Under the pieces are notes generated by a model that worked only from the letters and a program-made list of their open reading frames with translations, did not search any database and was not told the origin of the DNA. A stretch of 64,000 nt of DNA from positions 13,736 through 77,735 of IMG/VR virus record IMGVR_UViG_3300032163_000009; one strand, given 5' to 3'. Both the position numbers and the translations under genes were made by a program. This DNA comes from a virus. Below, piece after piece: positions 3,401 through 64,000 of this stretch (positions within the stretch are counted from its first letter, which is position 1; the number at the start of each line of letters is the position of its first letter).

Positions 3401-5593
3401 GGTCACCGCTGAACCCGCTGCGATCGTGATCTTATTTGAAGCGATCGACAATCGGCTATTGGTGTCCACGACTACGCGCGTGCCGCCGCCCGGTTCTGCC
3501 GCAGTGCCGTTGACCGCACCCGCTGCCAAGTTAGTGGTGAATGAATCGCTGATGGTGTAAGCCGTGGCCGTGGTAACCGCTGCATACAAATTTCCTGCGG
3601 ATAAAATCATAGCCGTGCCGCCAACCGCATGAATTTCACCGACCGTAAATACCGATGTGCGCATTTCGCCGCGCGCCGAAATGTTATTGAATTCCGCATT
3701 GCCAGTGTCGTTGATTGCCCAGCCGGTCAACCCTGATGTGAATGACGCGGATTGCACCGCATCACCAGCGCCAAAGGCCAACACATTCGCAGCCTTGCGA
3801 TTGATGGCCGCATCCGTGCCAAACACCACATTCGCCGTCGCCCCCAGATTAACCGTCGCGCCGGCCGCGCCCATATTGATCGTCGTACTTGCACCGGCGA
3901 AATTCAAAGTGGTGACCGTGGTGTTTAAGAGTGCGACCGTGGTTTGTGTGGACGTAATCGCAGACGCACCTAATGCGAGCGTGGCATTATTGATCGTGGT
4001 TGTGCCCGTCGCCGCTCCCATGTTCAACGCCGTAGCCGCACCAGCGAAATTAACAGTCGTAGCCGTGGTATTCACCAAGGCGAAAGTCGTCGTGTTTGCC
4101 AGTAGGTTCACCAACGTCAGTTGTCCGCTTGCATCCGAAGCCAACAGCGAAGCCGCCGCGCCGGGATTACTGGACGAAGTAATTGCGTGGCTGTGCGTTG
4201 TGCCGCTCACGCTATTGGTCGTTGAAACGGTCAAGGTGGTCGGCGTGCCGACCGCGATCACCTTGCTGGTAATCGTCAACCCCGCACCCGCCACCGCATC
4301 GGCTAACATCAGACCCGTTGAAATCTGCAAGCCCGATGTCGCGGCAAGTCGAACTTGAATGCTGTCTGCATTGATCGTCATTGATGTATCAGCCGTCGCC
4401 ACATCGATCGTCCGGTTAGCCGATAGATCACCGCCGCCCGTTAAGCCTGCCCCCGCCGTAATCGTAATCGCAGCGCGTGCAATCGTTGAATCGATCGCGT
4501 GGGTGTGATTAACCACCGTGAAATCATTGGTTGATGAAGCCGTGAGCGACCCCGCGCCTAATGAAATTGTGCCGGTAAGATCGGGCAAGGTGATGGTCTT
4601 GCCGCTGCTCGTCGGTGTCCACGTCAGTGTGCCGGTCACGCCGCCCGATTGCAGAATAATTTGATTTGTAGTCGAGGCTAATTTCAAATGTTGCAGCGTC
4701 AGATCACCGGAAGAATCCGAAGCCAACAATGAAGCCGCTGCGCCCGGCGCGCTGGATGAAGTAATCGCGTGACTATGAGTCGTGCCGCTGACGCTGTTGG
4801 TCGTGGCGACTGTTAAAGTGGTCGGCGTGCCGATAGCGATCACTTTACTCGTGATGGTCAGCCCGACACCGGCCACCGTATCAGCCAACATCAAACCCGA
4901 TGAAATCTGCAAACCGGAGGTCGAGGCCAATCTGACTTGCATCGAATCCGCGTTGATCGTGAGTGAAGTATCAGCGGTGACCACATCTAATACACCCGCC
5001 GTGTGAGTGAGTCCGGCACCGGCGAGAGTTGAAATCGATCGCCACGTCGCTGTCCACGGCGTAGTGCTTGAGCCGATGTACCCGTAGTCTGCTGCGCCGG
5101 AAGTGATACCGATCGAATCCGCTGCGACCGTGATCAGTGTGCCTGCCCCCACATCGATCGTTCGGTTCGCCGACAGATCTCCGCCTCCGGTTAAACCTGC
5201 ACCGGACGTAATAGTGATCGCACTCCGCGCGAGCGTGCTGTCGATCGCGTGCGTGTGCGTGGAAGTTGTAACTGAATTGGTGGAGATCGAAGTGATCGAG
5301 GAGGGCGTGCCTAGTTGCAAGCCGCTGGAGATCGTCATACCGCTATTCGTGTTCAGGTTCACACCAACGCCCGACCCATCGCTCGTGATCGAGGAGTCAC
5401 GCGTCGTCACCCGCACGGCTTGATAGGCGACGCGAGTGCCGCTGCCATCGGCGGAAGCATATTGAAGATGATCGTCGGCATTGAGATCGGTCAGCAGACT
5501 ATGATCGTTGGTGCCGCCGCCCTGGCTGCCGCCGCTGACCGACATCATCTTCAGCCCTTCGTAATTATCTTCGCCTCTGCCTAGTCTGCTCAT
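416..5593 (-). CDS. Large tail fibre / receptor-binding protein with internal repeats
   Basis: 1725 aa, T/G/A/S-rich; repeated GAGLTGGGDLSANRTIDV and HxH motifs; last of the tail genes. Confidence 0.85.
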   Translation of the reverse strand: MSRLGRGEDNYEGLKMMSVSGGSQGGGTNDHSLLTDLNADDHLQYASADGSGTRVAYQAVRVTTRDSSITSDGSGVGVNLNTNSGMTISSGLQLGTPSSITSISTNSVTTSTHTHAIDSTLARSAITITSGAGLTGGGDLSANRTIDVGAGTLITVAADSIGITSGAADYGYIGSSTTPWTATWRSISTLAGAGLTHTAGVLDVVTADTSLTINADSMQVRLASTSGLQISSGLMLADTVAGVGLTITSKVIAIGTPTTLTVATTNSVSGTTHSHAITSSSAPGAAASLLASDSSGDLTLQHLKLASTTNQIILQSGGVTGTLTWTPTSSGKTITLPDLTGTISLGAGSLTASSTNDFTVVNHTHAIDSTIARAAITITAGAGLTGGGDLSANRTIDVATADTSMTINADSIQVRLAATSGLQISTGLMLADAVAGAGLTITSKVIAVGTPTTLTVSTTNSVSGTTHSHAITSSSNPGAAASLLASDASGQLTLVNLLANTTTFALVNTTATTVNFAGAATALNMGAATGTTTINNATLALGASAITSTQTTVALLNTTVTTLNFAGASTTINMGAAGATVNLGATANVVFGTDAAINRKAANVLAFGAGDAVQSASFTSGLTGWAINDTGNAEFNNISARGEMRTSVFTVGEIHAVGGTAMILSAGNLYAAVTTATAYTISDSFTTNLAAGAVNGTAAEPGGGTRVVVDTNSRLSIASNKITIAAGSAVTGLWYAQRTRQAGLAILGTYNFTTAGSLSMGWDSDQTASTSPIATIYQNSGGGGGLSIRDNSSGKAVGANLSSGTDYQMAVVLRSTGAWYFIKGGIYTNWSLVWVSSAGTANLYPTIQDEGNTGVATFDDFRIPTQLYIPAPCAYDTFARANSAVTLTSTETSGPDSQIISALAYTAQVGTWGISTNAAYCPTLSGGNGFATVNSLCADAIIDVAVTRAGGVAGIVARWQDTSNYLIAYHDGTNAKLDKVVAGVTTNLISAAATYSAGAVLRLIIDGTNGLLYYNNVKVALGVVTVPASTYTLHGLYSTNTSNTFDNLTIWPRGTNNEHRWLGSLQDGSGAQIQVKDSPTGHLPLFAAGDILRLKAFTGSAVVDNWLRVDNAINTSNGVTYYTYNVSLMNGSSATFPAGAAVVDYGASGSSWISLSSDGTIGSAPNISMGTHAGSPWSTTTLLTRLGNLNGAYGYVVNTYGVGFGSYGVAGQTSITLDTTNGLRIINNVTTIGQWDGSGNITVGAVGASLSNVYITAGAVQLRTNTTVNLSLDTSGNIVVGTVANSLSRVEITAGAVNFISRSGGGVDTTQMSMSTAGVITIGAVGASLSNILITAGAAQFRTNTTVNMQLDTSGKVIVGQVANSQSRVEVSAGAISIIARSAGAVDATYFSVDTSGNVTLGVVGASKGNAYWNTSNNRLEFRGNTTVQAYVDTDGSISAGGGDVTLNSTGISIAATSATGTTHGVHWFNGGVNISRVLTTYAGTNAQIVIEALSKTATESATVVIETTNITGTVQAFFNLTSNGSSTSRAQLYSSAGTFDGLVIGALDTPAAMLDVRGSSIITGGLNIGSATGAGTGEIKVQQDTLGNAVQTYISTATNDDPTENIYQNRAATTDATVTTLHTVTVAASTTCVIEAVITARRTGGSSGAPNDSAGYVVYAVIKCNSTPTTAIVGSATTTVLGESQAGWDATIDVTGATARVRITGALNNNVTWHCTVRVWNLGS

Positions 5594-60084: not shown

Positions 60085-60463
60085 CGATCGTCCGTCGTTC
60101 CGAGTGCCGACTAACGGCATCGCCAATACCGACCCACTCGACATGTCGCAAGACGTGTTCGAGGAATGGGCGACGGTGCTAGAATGCAGCAATCCAGCGG
60201 CGATTGCTCAATGGCGAAGAAAGCGCATCGCTGCGGGCAAGTTGTCTGATGCCGCCTTTGAGAATCTTATCACCGAGGCTCGCATAATTCGAGGCGACAT
60301 CATGCTGGCCGGGCAAATGGCAACCAAAAGCCGCGTGGAAGATGTGCTGATGCTGCGCTATAGTTTCGATCGTGGCGTGGCCCACATGATTCTAAACACG
60401 ATCGAGCAGCGCAACTTGAAACCGTTGACTGTCGTGAAGCAGGAATGGAGCGAGGTGGCATGA
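60077..60463 (+). CDS. Hypothetical protein
   Basis: Overlapping operon. Confidence 0.65.
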   Translation: MNNDRPSFRVPTNGIANTDPLDMSQDVFEEWATVLECSNPAAIAQWRRKRIAAGKLSDAAFENLITEARIIRGDIMLAGQMATKSRVEDVLMLRYSFDRGVAHMILNTIEQRNLKPLTVVKQEWSEVA

Positions 60464-61572
60464 CCCAAAAGAAACAAGCGCTCTCGAAGAATGCGCAGCA
60501 AGCTGCGCTGGTCGCTGAATTGAAAAGGCAAACTGGCCTCGATATTCAAGTGGGCGACATCTTCATCGATGATGACGGCCGCTACCTGAAAGCCACGGCG
60601 TTGCTGCGCGAAGGCAAAGAGATCAAAGTAAAACTGGAAATCTGCGACTCGCGCGGCAAGATCACGAGCAGTTGGGGTACGATCGAACTCTCGCGCTTCG
60701 TGCATCGAGAATATATCAAGGTCACTGAACCTATTGAAGACTTGGAAGCGCAGGCCATTGCAGCGCTGAGCAATCTGGATCAGTTTGACGAAGAAAAGAT
60801 CGAAGCCGACGACACCAGCACGGCTTTAACCACCGCGCAAGACAAGAACGCCTTGATCGGTATGCGCGATCGGATGCAAGAGCGACGCGACCTGGTAGCG
60901 AAGATGGAAGCCGTGATCAAGCGCAAGATGAACGCGCTGAACAATTACGTTCAAGCCATGCAGGAAAAGATCGAAGCCGCGCAAAAAGTGATCGGCGCGT
61001 TTGAAGTTTATCTCGGTGTCTATCAAGACATCGTTCAAATCCGGGAAGGCGCACTGGCACCGGCGACCACCCCGATCGCGCTGCGTCAGCAAATTCTCTA
61101 CATGGACGAAGAAGCCGGAAACTACGAAGACGGCGGCATCGACTTCCAACGCATTGAAGATTTCGATCACTGGATCGTGCAACCGGCCAACCTGCACAGA
61201 GTTTTACCCGAAACTAAAGGCGTGGTGGCAATTCGGATTTCAAGACAGAAGCGCAACTACTCAAACAGTCCGTGGCTCAATGCCAGCCTGAACGCCAAGA
61301 ACATGCTGGCGTATCTGCTGATTCGCAACGGCGATCGATTGCTGCGCATTTGGCTCGACCTAACTTTAGATAAACGCCTGTACCCCTCGATCGATGAAAT
61401 GGAATCGATCCGGCGCAGCATTGAAAAAGACTGGGGCTTCACTGCCCGCGATGCGGGCGACAAAGAATTTGACTATAAGAAAAACGTGTTGATCTTGCAA
61501 GGCTTGCTCGATCGCACTGAGGTTTTTCAACCGCTGCCGATCGTGATCAACTTGTTGGGCGCAGGAGCATAG
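60460..61572 (+). CDS. Coiled-coil hypothetical protein, probably truncated by cassette insertion
   Basis: Last codons (LGAGA*) lie 3' of the G/TT crossover at 61554. Confidence 0.7.
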   Translation: MTQKKQALSKNAQQAALVAELKRQTGLDIQVGDIFIDDDGRYLKATALLREGKEIKVKLEICDSRGKITSSWGTIELSRFVHREYIKVTEPIEDLEAQAIAALSNLDQFDEEKIEADDTSTALTTAQDKNALIGMRDRMQERRDLVAKMEAVIKRKMNALNNYVQAMQEKIEAAQKVIGAFEVYLGVYQDIVQIREGALAPATTPIALRQQILYMDEEAGNYEDGGIDFQRIEDFDHWIVQPANLHRVLPETKGVVAIRISRQKRNYSNSPWLNASLNAKNMLAYLLIRNGDRLLRIWLDLTLDKRLYPSIDEMESIRRSIEKDWGFTARDAGDKEFDYKKNVLILQGLLDRTEVFQPLPIVINLLGAGA

Positions 61573-61576
61573 TCAC

Positions 61577-62266
61577 ATGAAGGCATTGAATCTGTACGCA
61601 GGCATTGGCGGTAATCGGCGGCTCTGGTCTGACGTTGAAGTTACAGCCGTCGAATACAATCCAGAGATAGCCGAAGTTTACAGCGACTTGTACCCACAAG
61701 ATAAAGTCATCATTGGCGACGCTCACCAATACCTGCTCGACCATTACCAAGAGTTTGATTTTATTTGGACTTCGCCGCCTTGCCAGTCTCATTCATCCAT
61801 GCGGCAAAATCTCGCAGTTCGTTTTCGTGGCACACCTGCCAAGTATCCAGATATGAGCCTGTATCAAGAAATCATTTTCTTGCAATACAACTTCGGCGGG
61901 TTGTGGGTTGTCGAGAATGTGCGCCCATATTATGAGCCGCTTATCCGTCCCACAATTGATTTACACCGTCACCTGTTCTGGTCAAACTTTCACATTGCGC
62001 CCGCCGATTTTACGAAAAGCAAATTACGCTCGGCGCAAATTTCAGACCTGCAAGAATATCTCGGTTTTGAAATAGGCAAATACAAGTTGTCTAATAAACG
62101 GCAGGTTTTGCGTAACTGCGTTCTCCCACCTTTAGGGCAGCATGTCTTCCTTTGCGCCCAACACCGCTTGCACCTGACCGCCTTTGGCGTGGGTACGGCG
62201 GCGGTCAATCCCCTGCAAGCGTCAATGTTTGCAGAAGTATCTCCCGCTACAATCGGCGGCAGGTAA
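61577..62266 (+). CDS. Compact C5-cytosine DNA methyltransferase (cassette 1)
   Basis: LYAGIGG, SPPCQ, VENV, RNCV; reads through attC1. Confidence 0.88.
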   Translation: MKALNLYAGIGGNRRLWSDVEVTAVEYNPEIAEVYSDLYPQDKVIIGDAHQYLLDHYQEFDFIWTSPPCQSHSSMRQNLAVRFRGTPAKYPDMSLYQEIIFLQYNFGGLWVVENVRPYYEPLIRPTIDLHRHLFWSNFHIAPADFTKSKLRSAQISDLQEYLGFEIGKYKLSNKRQVLRNCVLPPLGQHVFLCAQHRLHLTAFGVGTAAVNPLQASMFAEVSPATIGGR

Positions 62267-62281
62267 AGCAAGCCGTTAGAT
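62156..62281 (+). repeat. attC site 1 (126 bp)
   Basis: GCCCAAC-5-TTGCACCT...AGGTAAA-7-GTTAGAT. Confidence 0.85.
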
Positions 62282-62298
62282 TGCTTTTGAGGTATGCA

Positions 62299-62619
62299 AT
62301 GAATGAATCAACAACTGACGGAACATTAGGCAGACTTATCGACGCATCGTATGATTCCGGCTATTACAGCGGAAAATTGCAGGACGGTGAACCACATCAT
62401 CTTGCGGCAATAAAAGAGCGTGAATACTTCCGGCGCGCGGTGCTTGCAAGAATGAGAAACAAGGAAAAATGCACATGGGTTGAAGATAGTGAAGGCGAAT
62501 ACTGGAACACGTCATGTAATCAAGCCTTCACGCTTTTAGCCGGAACGCCAGTTGAAAACAGTATTCGCTTTTGTCCATTTTGCGGCGATGAAGTTTTGCA
62601 GACAGTGAGCGCAATCTAA
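62299..62619 (+). CDS. Phage-type Zn-finger protein (cassette 2)
   Basis: CTW..TSC..FCPFCG; stop TAA inside ATCTAAC. Confidence 0.8.
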   Translation: MNESTTDGTLGRLIDASYDSGYYSGKLQDGEPHHLAAIKEREYFRRAVLARMRNKEKCTWVEDSEGEYWNTSCNQAFTLLAGTPVENSIRFCPFCGDEVLQTVSAI

Positions 62620-62707
62620 CAACGGCTTGCACGCCGACTGTCTATCGTAGCGTCGATTATCGTAGTGGCTCGGCCATCGCCAGCGGGTGAAGCCGAGACC
62701 GTTGTAC
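62614..62707 (+). repeat. attC site 2 (94 bp)
   Basis: ATCTAAC..TTGCAC...GGTGAA..GTTGTAC. Confidence 0.85.
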
Positions 62708-62720
62708 GGCATCTCTTATC

Positions 62721-63464
62721 ATGGGCAACAGACGACCGATAATCTTAGACCTCTACTGCCGGGCTGGTGGGTCGGCAATGGGCTACAGTCGCGCCGGGTT
62801 TAGGGTGGTGGGCATTGACATCAGCCCACAGCCGCGCTATCCGTTTGATTTCGTGCGCGGTGACGCGATAGAACACCTGGCAATGCTGCTGCAAGGCGGT
62901 AGCATTCGCGGCAAGCGAAGAACTTACTATCTGTCAGACTTCAGCGCAATCAATGCAAGCCCGCCATGCCAGCGCTATTCGATGATCACTGTTGTTCATG
63001 GCAAGGACGTTGTGGATAGTCATCCCGACCTGATAGATGCTACTCGTAAAATGTTGGTAGAAACTGGTTTGCCGTATGTGATCGAAAACGTAGCACGTGC
63101 TCCGATGAATGGGAGTCTATTACTGTGCGGTTCGATGTTCGGGTTAGGCGTTCGTCGGCACCGCATATTTGAAGGAGATGTACCAACATTCGCGCCGTAT
63201 AGTTGTAATCATAGCGGGTGGGCCGTGCCGGTGTACGGCCATTCAGGAGCCGGCGCGAATCGAAACAGAGAACGCGAACGCGGTAGGAACAACAGCGTTA
63301 GTGATTGGGCTGTTGCGATGGGGATTGATTGGATGACAGGCGACGATCTGGCAGAAGCCATTCCGCCGGCTTACACTGAATACATTGGACGGCACTTGCT
63401 TAGATTGGTTGCCGTACAACACCGCGTGCAGCCGAACTTGCCCAGCTGCGCCGCAATCGTCTAA
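62721..63464 (+). CDS. Compact C5-cytosine DNA methyltransferase (cassette 3)
   Basis: DLYCRAGG, ASPPCQ, IENV, RRHRIFE, AIPPAYTEYIG. Confidence 0.88.
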   Translation: MGNRRPIILDLYCRAGGSAMGYSRAGFRVVGIDISPQPRYPFDFVRGDAIEHLAMLLQGGSIRGKRRTYYLSDFSAINASPPCQRYSMITVVHGKDVVDSHPDLIDATRKMLVETGLPYVIENVARAPMNGSLLLCGSMFGLGVRRHRIFEGDVPTFAPYSCNHSGWAVPVYGHSGAGANRNRERERGRNNSVSDWAVAMGIDWMTGDDLAEAIPPAYTEYIGRHLLRLVAVQHRVQPNLPSCAAIV

Positions 63465-63521
63465 ACTCTAAACCATAGGCCGGTCAGTCGGTGGCAAGTC
63501 GGCTGACGCAGGCCGTTAGGC
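63414..63521 (+). repeat. attC site 3 (108 bp)
   Basis: GTACAAC-5-GTGCAGCC...GGCTGAC-7-GTTAGGC. Confidence 0.9.
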
Positions 63522-63529
63522 TGCTAATC

Positions 63530-63805
63530 ATGGGACGCAAAACACTTTGGCGATCGTTTTCATTCACTGACCCGAACAAGGTTCGACGACTACAGTCGTC
63601 ATTATCTGGCCTTCCAGCGCATCATTCGGACAAATATCAGACAACCTTAATCGGTGGTCATGTCGGAGAAGTGGAAACAAATCTGCCACTATCTGAAATC
63701 CGTGTGTGGTTTCGCGCCGCTGGCGTACCAATGCAGGACTACGTAACTGACACGATGACGCTTGAAGACAGGGTGAAAGTTTGGGAAGCAGAGGACGCAA
63801 CCTAA
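63530..63805 (+). CDS. Hypothetical protein (cassette 4)
   Basis: ATG 9 nt after R'; stop TAA inside ACCTAAC. Confidence 0.75.
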   Translation: MGRKTLWRSFSFTDPNKVRRLQSSLSGLPAHHSDKYQTTLIGGHVGEVETNLPLSEIRVWFRAAGVPMQDYVTDTMTLEDRVKVWEAEDAT

Positions 63806-63890
63806 CAACCGCATAGAACCGATTTGCTTTCACCGTTTGGCAATCGGCACTAATTACGAAATCGCAAACGGCTCATGCAAACCGTTAGAT
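63800..63890 (+). repeat. attC site 4 (91 bp)
   Basis: ACCTAAC..ATAGAACCG...CGGCTCAT..GTTAGAT. Confidence 0.85.
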
Positions 63891-63907
63891 TGCTTTTGAG
63901 GTATGCA

Positions 63908-64000
63908 ATGAATGAATCAACAACTGACGGAACATTAGGCAGACTTATCGACGCATCGTATGATTCCGGCTATTACAGCGGAAAATTGCAGGACGGTGAA
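63908..64000 (+). CDS. Second copy of cassette-2 gene (partial)
   Basis: 63884-64000 is identical to 62275-62391. Confidence 0.85.
   Translation, partial: MNESTTDGTLGRLIDASYDSGYYSGKLQDGE

Follow-up and report, generated by a model that had tools for sequence, protein, structure and literature searches.

At the extreme end of a contig from an uncultured tailed phage lies an array of integron-type gene cassettes, set between the two halves of a conserved phage gene. The contig is the 77,735-base (b) IMG/VR record IMGVR_UViG_3300032163_000009, which comes from a sediment sample and is described there as linear, with a completeness rating of 73%. The window analyzed here is the 64,000-nucleotide (nt) stretch formed by bases 13,736-77,735 of this record; positions are those of the window unless prefixed with L001, which denotes coordinates counted from the start of the same contig.

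All features of the array are on the + strand. It begins with cassette 1 (61555-62275, 721 nt), whose open reading frame (ORF; 61577-62266) encodes MT1, a small C5 DNA methyltransferase-like protein of 229 amino acids (aa). Cassette 2 (62276-62701, 426 nt) carries an ORF (62299-62619) for a 106-aa zinc (Zn)-ribbon protein with a CPFCG motif, assigned to phrog_10312; cassette 3 (62702-63515, 814 nt) encodes MT2, a predicted small C5 DNA methyltransferase of 247 aa (62721-63464); and cassette 4 (63516-63884, 369 nt) encodes a 91-aa protein that belongs to no family and is called unk here (63530-63805). Cassette 5 repeats the Zn cassette; it starts at 63885, runs off the window at 64000 and resumes at L001 1-179.

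Architecture of the attC sites

An earlier note, made from the letters of the window, had described four imperfect palindromes at this locus with the layout of attC sites, each behind one promoterless ORF. All four are present, with coordinates that differ by 1-3 nt: attC1 (62153-62281, R' end GTTAGAT), attC2 (62611-62707, GTTGTAC), attC3 (63411-63521, GTTAGGC) and attC4 (63797-63890, GTTAGAT). A fifth site, attC5, lies past the window edge (L001 89-185, GTTCGAC). R1, a covariance model trained solely on five distinct phage attC sites, scores attC1 to attC4 at 88.9, 70.8, 91.9 and 81.7 bits, values that are high by construction on its own training sites. A search of the whole record with R1 returns six sites, the five of the array and an isolated one described below, and none beyond these in the 77.7 kb.

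Alignment of the sites bears out the architecture that had been proposed, with R'', an L''/L' stem with an extra base, a variable centre and R'. The consensus reads xxYAAC, a spacer of 3-4 nt, GCNTGCA-NCCGA, a centre of variable length, CGGNTNANGC, a 5-nt spacer (ARRCC) and GTTRRRY, and the xxYAAC start of R'' is common to all six sites. The two unpaired spacers are thus unequal (3-4 nt vs 5 nt), and the L''/L' stem carries extra bases on its 5' ('') arm, with a bulged base after the fourth L pair of that arm in every site. In a hand alignment, changes in the L stem are compensatory between copies. Loop lengths differ, so that the sites range from 94 to 129 nt.

A pattern derived from these attC sites does not match once when the window is shuffled 100 times; together with the covariation of the L stem, this excludes a chance origin of the palindromes. 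Among 47 related sites, in an alignment that had been fitted to R1, 92% of cells are paired compared with 21-29% in slid controls, double changes are seen in 7 of 10 L pairs, and the covariation score is reached by 0 of 500 shuffles. The bottom-strand minimum-free-energy (MFE) fold of attC4 has a z-score of -3.3, and none of the sites has T-runs of the intrinsic-terminator kind. Judged by sequence and predicted pairing, the palindromes are genuine integron attC sites bounding single-ORF cassettes.

Each of the four attC sites in the window does follow one ORF on the + strand, and promoter-like sites are not enriched in the cassettes (8 vs 5.5 ± 2.6 in shuffles), in agreement with their description as promoterless. 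It had also been claimed that the two ends of each cassette are complementary to one another and that the two ends of each attC in the array are not. Over 12 nt, own ends match at 10/12 for the MT1 cassette, 10/12 for Zn, 11/12 for MT2, 9/12 for unk and 10/12 for the isolated cassette, against 4-8 of 12 for other end pairings. The claim therefore stands for cassettes 1-3; cassette 4 is ambiguous, as its R'' matches the start of the next cassette (10/12) no worse than its own.

Two short, low-depth contigs of the probable source run, a sediment metagenome searched as Logan contigs, carry the R''-L'' part of attC1 (62155-62190, depth 3.4) behind a different upstream sequence. Since they differ upstream, the same sample holds other cassettes with related attC sites.

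The array within a split phage gene

To the left of the array lies the N-terminal part of a conserved early gene of ~600 aa with no assigned function. Its 370 codons (60445-61554, + strand) lead up to the first R', whose G61554/TT (a slash marks the joining point in junctions) falls at a codon boundary within the gene. At this left junction (TTG/TTG, 61552-61557, + strand), an attG-like phage half is joined, G61554/T61555, to the R' remainder of cassette 1. The present ORF runs from 60445 to 61572 and gains five codons and a stop from cassette DNA, for a product of 375 aa. To the right of the array, attC5 is followed by the C-terminal part of the gene (L001 180-884, + strand, 234 codons), which continues in frame from G179/TTC GAC CCG.

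The two parts lie at opposite ends of the contig. Its last 119 b (63882-64000) are identical to the start of cassette 2 (62273-62391), and its first bases (L001 1-181) match the closing part of cassette 2 with its attC (62523-62703) at 99.4% identity, up to ...GAGACCG/TT. Because both contig ends repeat cassette 2, the record closes on itself via the second Zn cassette.

In alignment A1, the joined halves (...VINL / FDPNTY...) fit the sequence ...IPNLFDPATY... of a full-length relative with zero residues lost or gained. Removing the array in silico yields ...AACTTG/TTCGACCCG, that is, the target ATCAACTTG/TTCGACCCG, and the corresponding codons of an intact relative (L002) are ...AATCTG/TTCGACCCG. 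More than 40 homologues of the split-gene ORF are known; they are uninterrupted, and nearly all are about 570-650 aa long. A search with alignment A2 found the family in 63 IMG/VR loci, with matches that in most cases span almost the full gene; in these 63 related-phage loci with an intact gene R1 has no match, so they offer no alternative cassette order. An independent assembly of the probable source run bridges the left junction, with 60500-62302 in one contig.

With one half of the same conserved phage gene on each side, the array is flanked by phage DNA at both ends and so lies in the phage. On the other arm of the record, profile searches identify genes for terminase, portal, protease and tape measure, and replication genes are found just upstream of the array: a DnaC-like loader, a RusA-like protein, a pol-beta-like nucleotidyltransferase and an ATP-dependent ligase. 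The + strand operon runs on for kilobases past the array, after which tail/lysis-type genes are encoded on the opposite strand. The cassettes are co-oriented with the early/replication operon, as the earlier note had stated.

Pfam and PHROG give no function for the interrupted gene, and an AlphaFold (AF2) model of a full-length homologue (predicted local distance difference test, pLDDT, 77.7) has no fold match in the PDB. In this model the break falls in a coil (residues 361-375) that connects a long helix to the C-terminal part, and the two halves of the split gene might still be functional.

A second insertion

About 5 kb past the array, an isolated cassette (L001 5310-5547, 238 nt) splits an ASCH-like gene. 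It consists of an ORF for a 61-aa Zn-ribbon protein (5329-5514) and an attC site (5459-5553), and is flanked by ORFs at L001 5055-5309 and 5548-6021. ASCH-like homologues match the upstream 85 codons with their N-terminal half, and the downstream ORF begins exactly at their WRWK motif; once the cassette is removed, the frame of the gene is restored. Neither half is recognized by Pfam, although the homology alignment did show the relationship.

Cassette cargo and restriction pressure

The cargo had been taken for typical phage accessory content, and this is what we find: predicted small C5 methyltransferases, together with a Zn-ribbon protein. Clusters of proteins resembling the latter are for the most part viral, which is a lead only. 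MT1 matches PF00145 at 37.2 bits (cut-off 22), over profile positions 1-80 only, and also matches phrog_363. MT2 matches phrog_363 at 1e-31, with no direct Pfam match above the cut-off; it has at least 7,900 homologues of 190-290 aa, many of them with PF00145 or named DNA (cytosine-5)-methyltransferase. The GxGG/AGG, SPPCQ and (V/I)ENV motifs can be read in both proteins, and sequence searches of the PDB with MT1 and MT2 gave marginal matches only. The cassette 4 protein has no match in Pfam, PHROG, NCBIfam or Atlas.

Similar cargo is found between similar sites elsewhere. Homologues of MT1, MT2 and the Zn-ribbon protein sit between attC sites of the same type at other loci (those of MT2 at L164, L196 and L178), and methyltransferase cassettes recur in other viral contigs. 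A 34-nt stretch of MT1 that codes for the catalytic motif SPPCQ (61749-61784) also matches many high-depth contigs from unrelated metagenomes; these matches reflect the conserved methyltransferase motif and not cassette 1 itself.

Cassette 1 itself is present in runs X2 and X5 (lake-water and wastewater contigs), where 61554-62280 is found at 96-97% identity. The flanks in these contigs diverge exactly at the cassette boundaries, 61554 and 62279/62280, and one upstream flank ends in ...GGTAACGCAATCC, the 3' end of another attC. Cassette 1 is mobile between contexts.

The composition of the record bears on what the methyltransferases may do. Of the 64 six-base palindromes, 34 occur at no more than one quarter of expectation, and many are absent; as these are nearly missing from the backbone, restriction is a strong pressure on the phage, against which orphan methyltransferases would plausibly be helpful. 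The array shares this avoidance of 6-bp palindromes. It does not share the ninefold excess of CGATCG in the backbone (207 in the record vs 22 expected), with one CGATCG in array DNA vs 7.2 expected (P = 0.006). Together, these features suggest that the array is foreign DNA that evolved under similar restriction pressure. We infer that MT1 and MT2, both predicted to be small C5 methyltransferases of the orphan kind, most likely shield the DNA of the phage against restriction by its host. The CGATCG excess was also considered as a sign of the cyanobacterial HIP1 octamer and this was ruled out, GCGATCGC being present 3 times vs 1.6 expected, which is no enrichment.

Integron integrases beside the same type of site

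We searched the attC-derived pattern over 185,579 species genomes and IMG/VR, and called integron integrases (IntI) with the TIGR02249 profile at a cut-off of 265 bits, which 0 of 14 control genomes pass. In the species genomes, the pattern occurs in 51 stretches, 31 of which are in metagenome-assembled genomes (MAGs) of Chloroflexota. Proteins scoring 430-480 bits on TIGR02249 are present in three of five such genomes. At locus L127 of an Anaerolineales MAG, 13 R1 sites on one strand (36-43 bits) run from a divergent 450-bit IntI, and R1 matches adjoin IntI in two further Chloroflexota genomes. The layout varies between Chloroflexota loci L126 (G005:C5) and L127 (G004:C1), with IntI divergent, as is classical, at one and co-oriented upstream at the other, the latter being also the arrangement of the seven phage records described next.

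In IMG/VR the pattern occurs in 97 stretches. Among 50 records with this attC type, seven encode an IntI at 368-428 bits followed directly by co-oriented R1 sites: G035 (L237 and L238), G029 (L241-L243), G043, G047, G052, G036 and G031. We examined phage hallmark genes in two of the seven. G035 (37,160 b, 127-nt terminal overlap, CheckV 100%) encodes terminase, portal and major head genes, and its terminal overlap starts exactly at an attC R' (CC GTTAGAC); the 56-kb G029 encodes terminase, portal and tape-measure genes, with IntI as its sole tyrosine recombinase. Both look like phages with complete integrons. The attC type of the array is linked to IntI, and it offers Chloroflexota as a lead for the host or donor lineage. 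No tRNA genes were found in the record, which thus gives no lead to the host by this route.

Origin of the array

The array consists of five attC sites within 2.8 kb in a record that lacks an integrase, and is as such a set of clustered attC sites without an integron integrase (CALIN). The whole 77.7-kb record has no match to TIGR02249 or PF00589 and no tyrosine recombinase. There is no attI, cassette 1 abutting codon 370 of the phage ORF directly, and the set of intI, attI and cassette promoter (Pc) that defines a complete integron does not stand beside the array. Its borders have the form of an attG-type insertion: the target is TTG/TTC, and the gene is restored exactly, with no duplication or loss of target sequence. 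We conclude that the array is very probably a CALIN in a tailed-phage genome, inserted by a trans-acting IntI at a non-canonical G/TT site. From the junctions and sites, we infer that an integron integrase catalyzed both this insertion and that of the isolated cassette.

In the scenario that we propose, IntI would be supplied in trans, the likely sources being a host chromosomal integron with attC sites of the Chloroflexota type or a second phage that resides in the same cell and bears an integron. A circular cassette, or a circle of several cassettes, would have recombined through its folded attC with the target ATCAACTTG/TTCGACCCG in a linker of the ~600-aa early gene, giving the order MT1, Zn, MT2, unk, Zn, and a separate event would have placed a single cassette in the ASCH-like gene. 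One multi-cassette circle and stepwise build-up by attC x attC recombination are both compatible with the array and cannot be told apart, and the second Zn copy agrees with a replicative IntI event as well as with a donor that already held the duplicate. Lacking promoters and oriented like the early/replication operon, the cassettes would be transcribed by run-through.

Several observations weigh against this account. About 131 nt of the second Zn copy are unassembled, and the right junction, from attC5 to the C-terminal part of the gene, comes from the IMG/VR contig alone. In the probable source run, the Zn unit (62273-62703) has a depth of 14.9, with feeder contigs at 11.9 and 13.3; two copies per genome should give ~25, a misfit that may reflect a mixed population or free circles of the cassette. 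The right junction of the isolated cassette is G/AA (target TTG/AAA) and fits only the G/W of the G/WT consensus. The bottom-strand MFE z-scores of attC1 to attC3 are modest (-1.0 to -1.6) and do not discriminate by themselves, and the R1 scores of the array sites are those of a model on its own training set. As to the host, the bacterial taxon labels are those of MAG bins, and the portal protein has relatives that are only 33% identical in 401 Chloroflexota genomes, so that the host link fails on this gene. The two broken phage genes, finally, raise the possibility that the element is defective.

This last point underlies the alternative that survives best: the cassettes would be genuine, yet the element defective and its cassettes a neutral or harmful burden instead of the adaptive load of a working phage. 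Besides the interruption of two conserved genes, the lack of an integrase and the fact that the whole stretch was found in one sample only speak for it. The structural and replication genes look intact, however; the 600-aa gene is split in the predicted coil (residues 361-375) between two folded parts, so that its halves may still work; the recurrence of orphan methyltransferases as cassettes in other viral contigs and the strong avoidance of restriction sites by the backbone, which marks restriction as a real pressure, also argue for a useful load. We consider this alternative unlikely.

A different route to the same array is its transfer as one block from a host array, through illegitimate or homologous recombination and without IntI acting at an attG-type site. 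Qi et al. proposed such a route for phage CALINs, with GTTRRRY-like motifs at their borders, and the whole array could have come in a single event. What makes it very unlikely here is the precision of the borders: both fall exactly at the R' G/TT cleavage point with no target base lost, gained or duplicated, the left border of the second, independent insertion is likewise exact, and the junctions match the experimentally defined attG pathway.

The array could also have been thought to lie in a host chromosomal integron beyond the end of a prophage, or to be an assembly chimera of phage and integron, given its position at the very end of a linear record rated 73% complete, the contig break within a repeat and the known confusion of assemblers by cassette arrays. 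Against this, the flanks are two halves of one phage gene that meet at one codon boundary, the + strand operon and then tail/lysis-type genes lie past the array, a second assembler bridges the left junction and the record has no tyrosine-type integrase. With a negligible probability left to it, this reading is excluded for practical purposes. It is equally improbable that the hairpins belong to a phage-specific cassette system with another recombinase, as the lack of IntI in the phage might suggest, or are terminators, since the same type of site adjoins TIGR02249 proteins of 368-480 bits in bacteria and phages, the sites have canonical RYYYAAC/GTTRRRY boxes, ORF-then-attC order and a G/TT cut, and intrinsic-terminator-like T-runs are absent.

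Insertion by a trans-acting IntI into the phage gene thus agrees with two statements of the earlier note: junctions and sites support cassettes of the IntI type joined at G/TT, and the split-gene flanks support their being truly phage-borne. The note had further supposed the integrase to be encoded by the host or outside the window. The remainder of the 77.7-kb record does not encode one, and what stands is that it must act in trans. Its proposal that the phage may use an integron integrase as its own gene-shuffling system is not supported: there is no attI, the off-target founding event cuts a conserved gene and a second cassette cuts another, all of which looks like collateral IntI activity rather than a dedicated platform. 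Its premise that integrons are mainly described on chromosomes and plasmids overlooks the published phage CALINs with methyltransferase cassettes (PMC9892861).

For a wider set of tailed phages, a bolder reading is that integrons are a regular platform for accessory genes and not an accident, which we regard as doubtful, if somewhat less so than the junk alternative above. If true, the integrase would come in trans from host integrons or from phages with IntI; it would load and shuffle counter-defence cassettes in phages that lack an integrase, such as the present one, and a phage-encoded IntI might double as a lysogeny integrase.

Comparison with known systems

Both phage CALINs and attG insertion have already been published, and the present array belongs to both kinds. 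Qi et al. 2023 (PMC9892861) described CALINs in 17 phages, virulent ones included, noted methyltransferase cassettes among them and showed that phage attC sites recombine with attI1; they also reported GTTRRRY-like motifs at CALIN borders and proposed off-target or illegitimate recombination. The array resembles those CALINs in its co-oriented attC-bounded cassettes, the lack of intI, the methyltransferase cargo and the proposed anti-restriction benefit. It differs in that the founding event can be read, with a gene split at G/TT and nothing lost, in that a second gene is split, and in its attC type, which is that of Chloroflexota integrons.

Loot et al. (bioRxiv 10.1101/2022.09.11.507474; Nat Microbiol 2024 per PMC13323075) found that attC circles insert genome-wide at short G/WT sites, termed attG, and that the products in bacteria are single attC sites lacking an integron integrase (SALINs), each a single cassette, as well as small integrase-less arrays. 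The insertions described here are likewise outside attI and attC, inside genes and at short G/WT sites, and comprise an isolated cassette and an integrase-less array. Unlike in that work, the target is a phage genome and not a bacterial chromosome, the right junction of the isolated cassette is G/AA, and the integrase probably belongs to a distant lineage, that of the Chloroflexota type, rather than to IntI1-3.

The array shares its attC family, by R1, with the chromosomal integron of Chloroflexota at L127, but lacks the intI, attI and Pc of that integron and has attC sites of 94-129 nt instead of about 133 nt. Like phage morons and orphan methyltransferases, the cassettes are small accessory genes in an operon, with transcription expected by run-through, and orphan methyltransferases are a form of counter-defence. 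Whereas morons are autonomous promoter-terminator units, each gene here is a discrete IntI-mobilizable unit with its own attC.

What this locus adds is a readable founding event in a phage gene, a second insertion in the same genome, attC sites of Chloroflexota type and a cassette common to distant habitats. It constitutes a natural record of an integron integrase acting on a phage genome, legible in both junctions, in the restored target and in a relative's empty site, and so joins two recent results, phage CALINs and attG insertion. The cargo, predicted orphan C5 methyltransferases in a genome that strongly avoids restriction sites, points to counter-defence. The locus also supports a view of phages as both receivers and carriers of integron cassettes.

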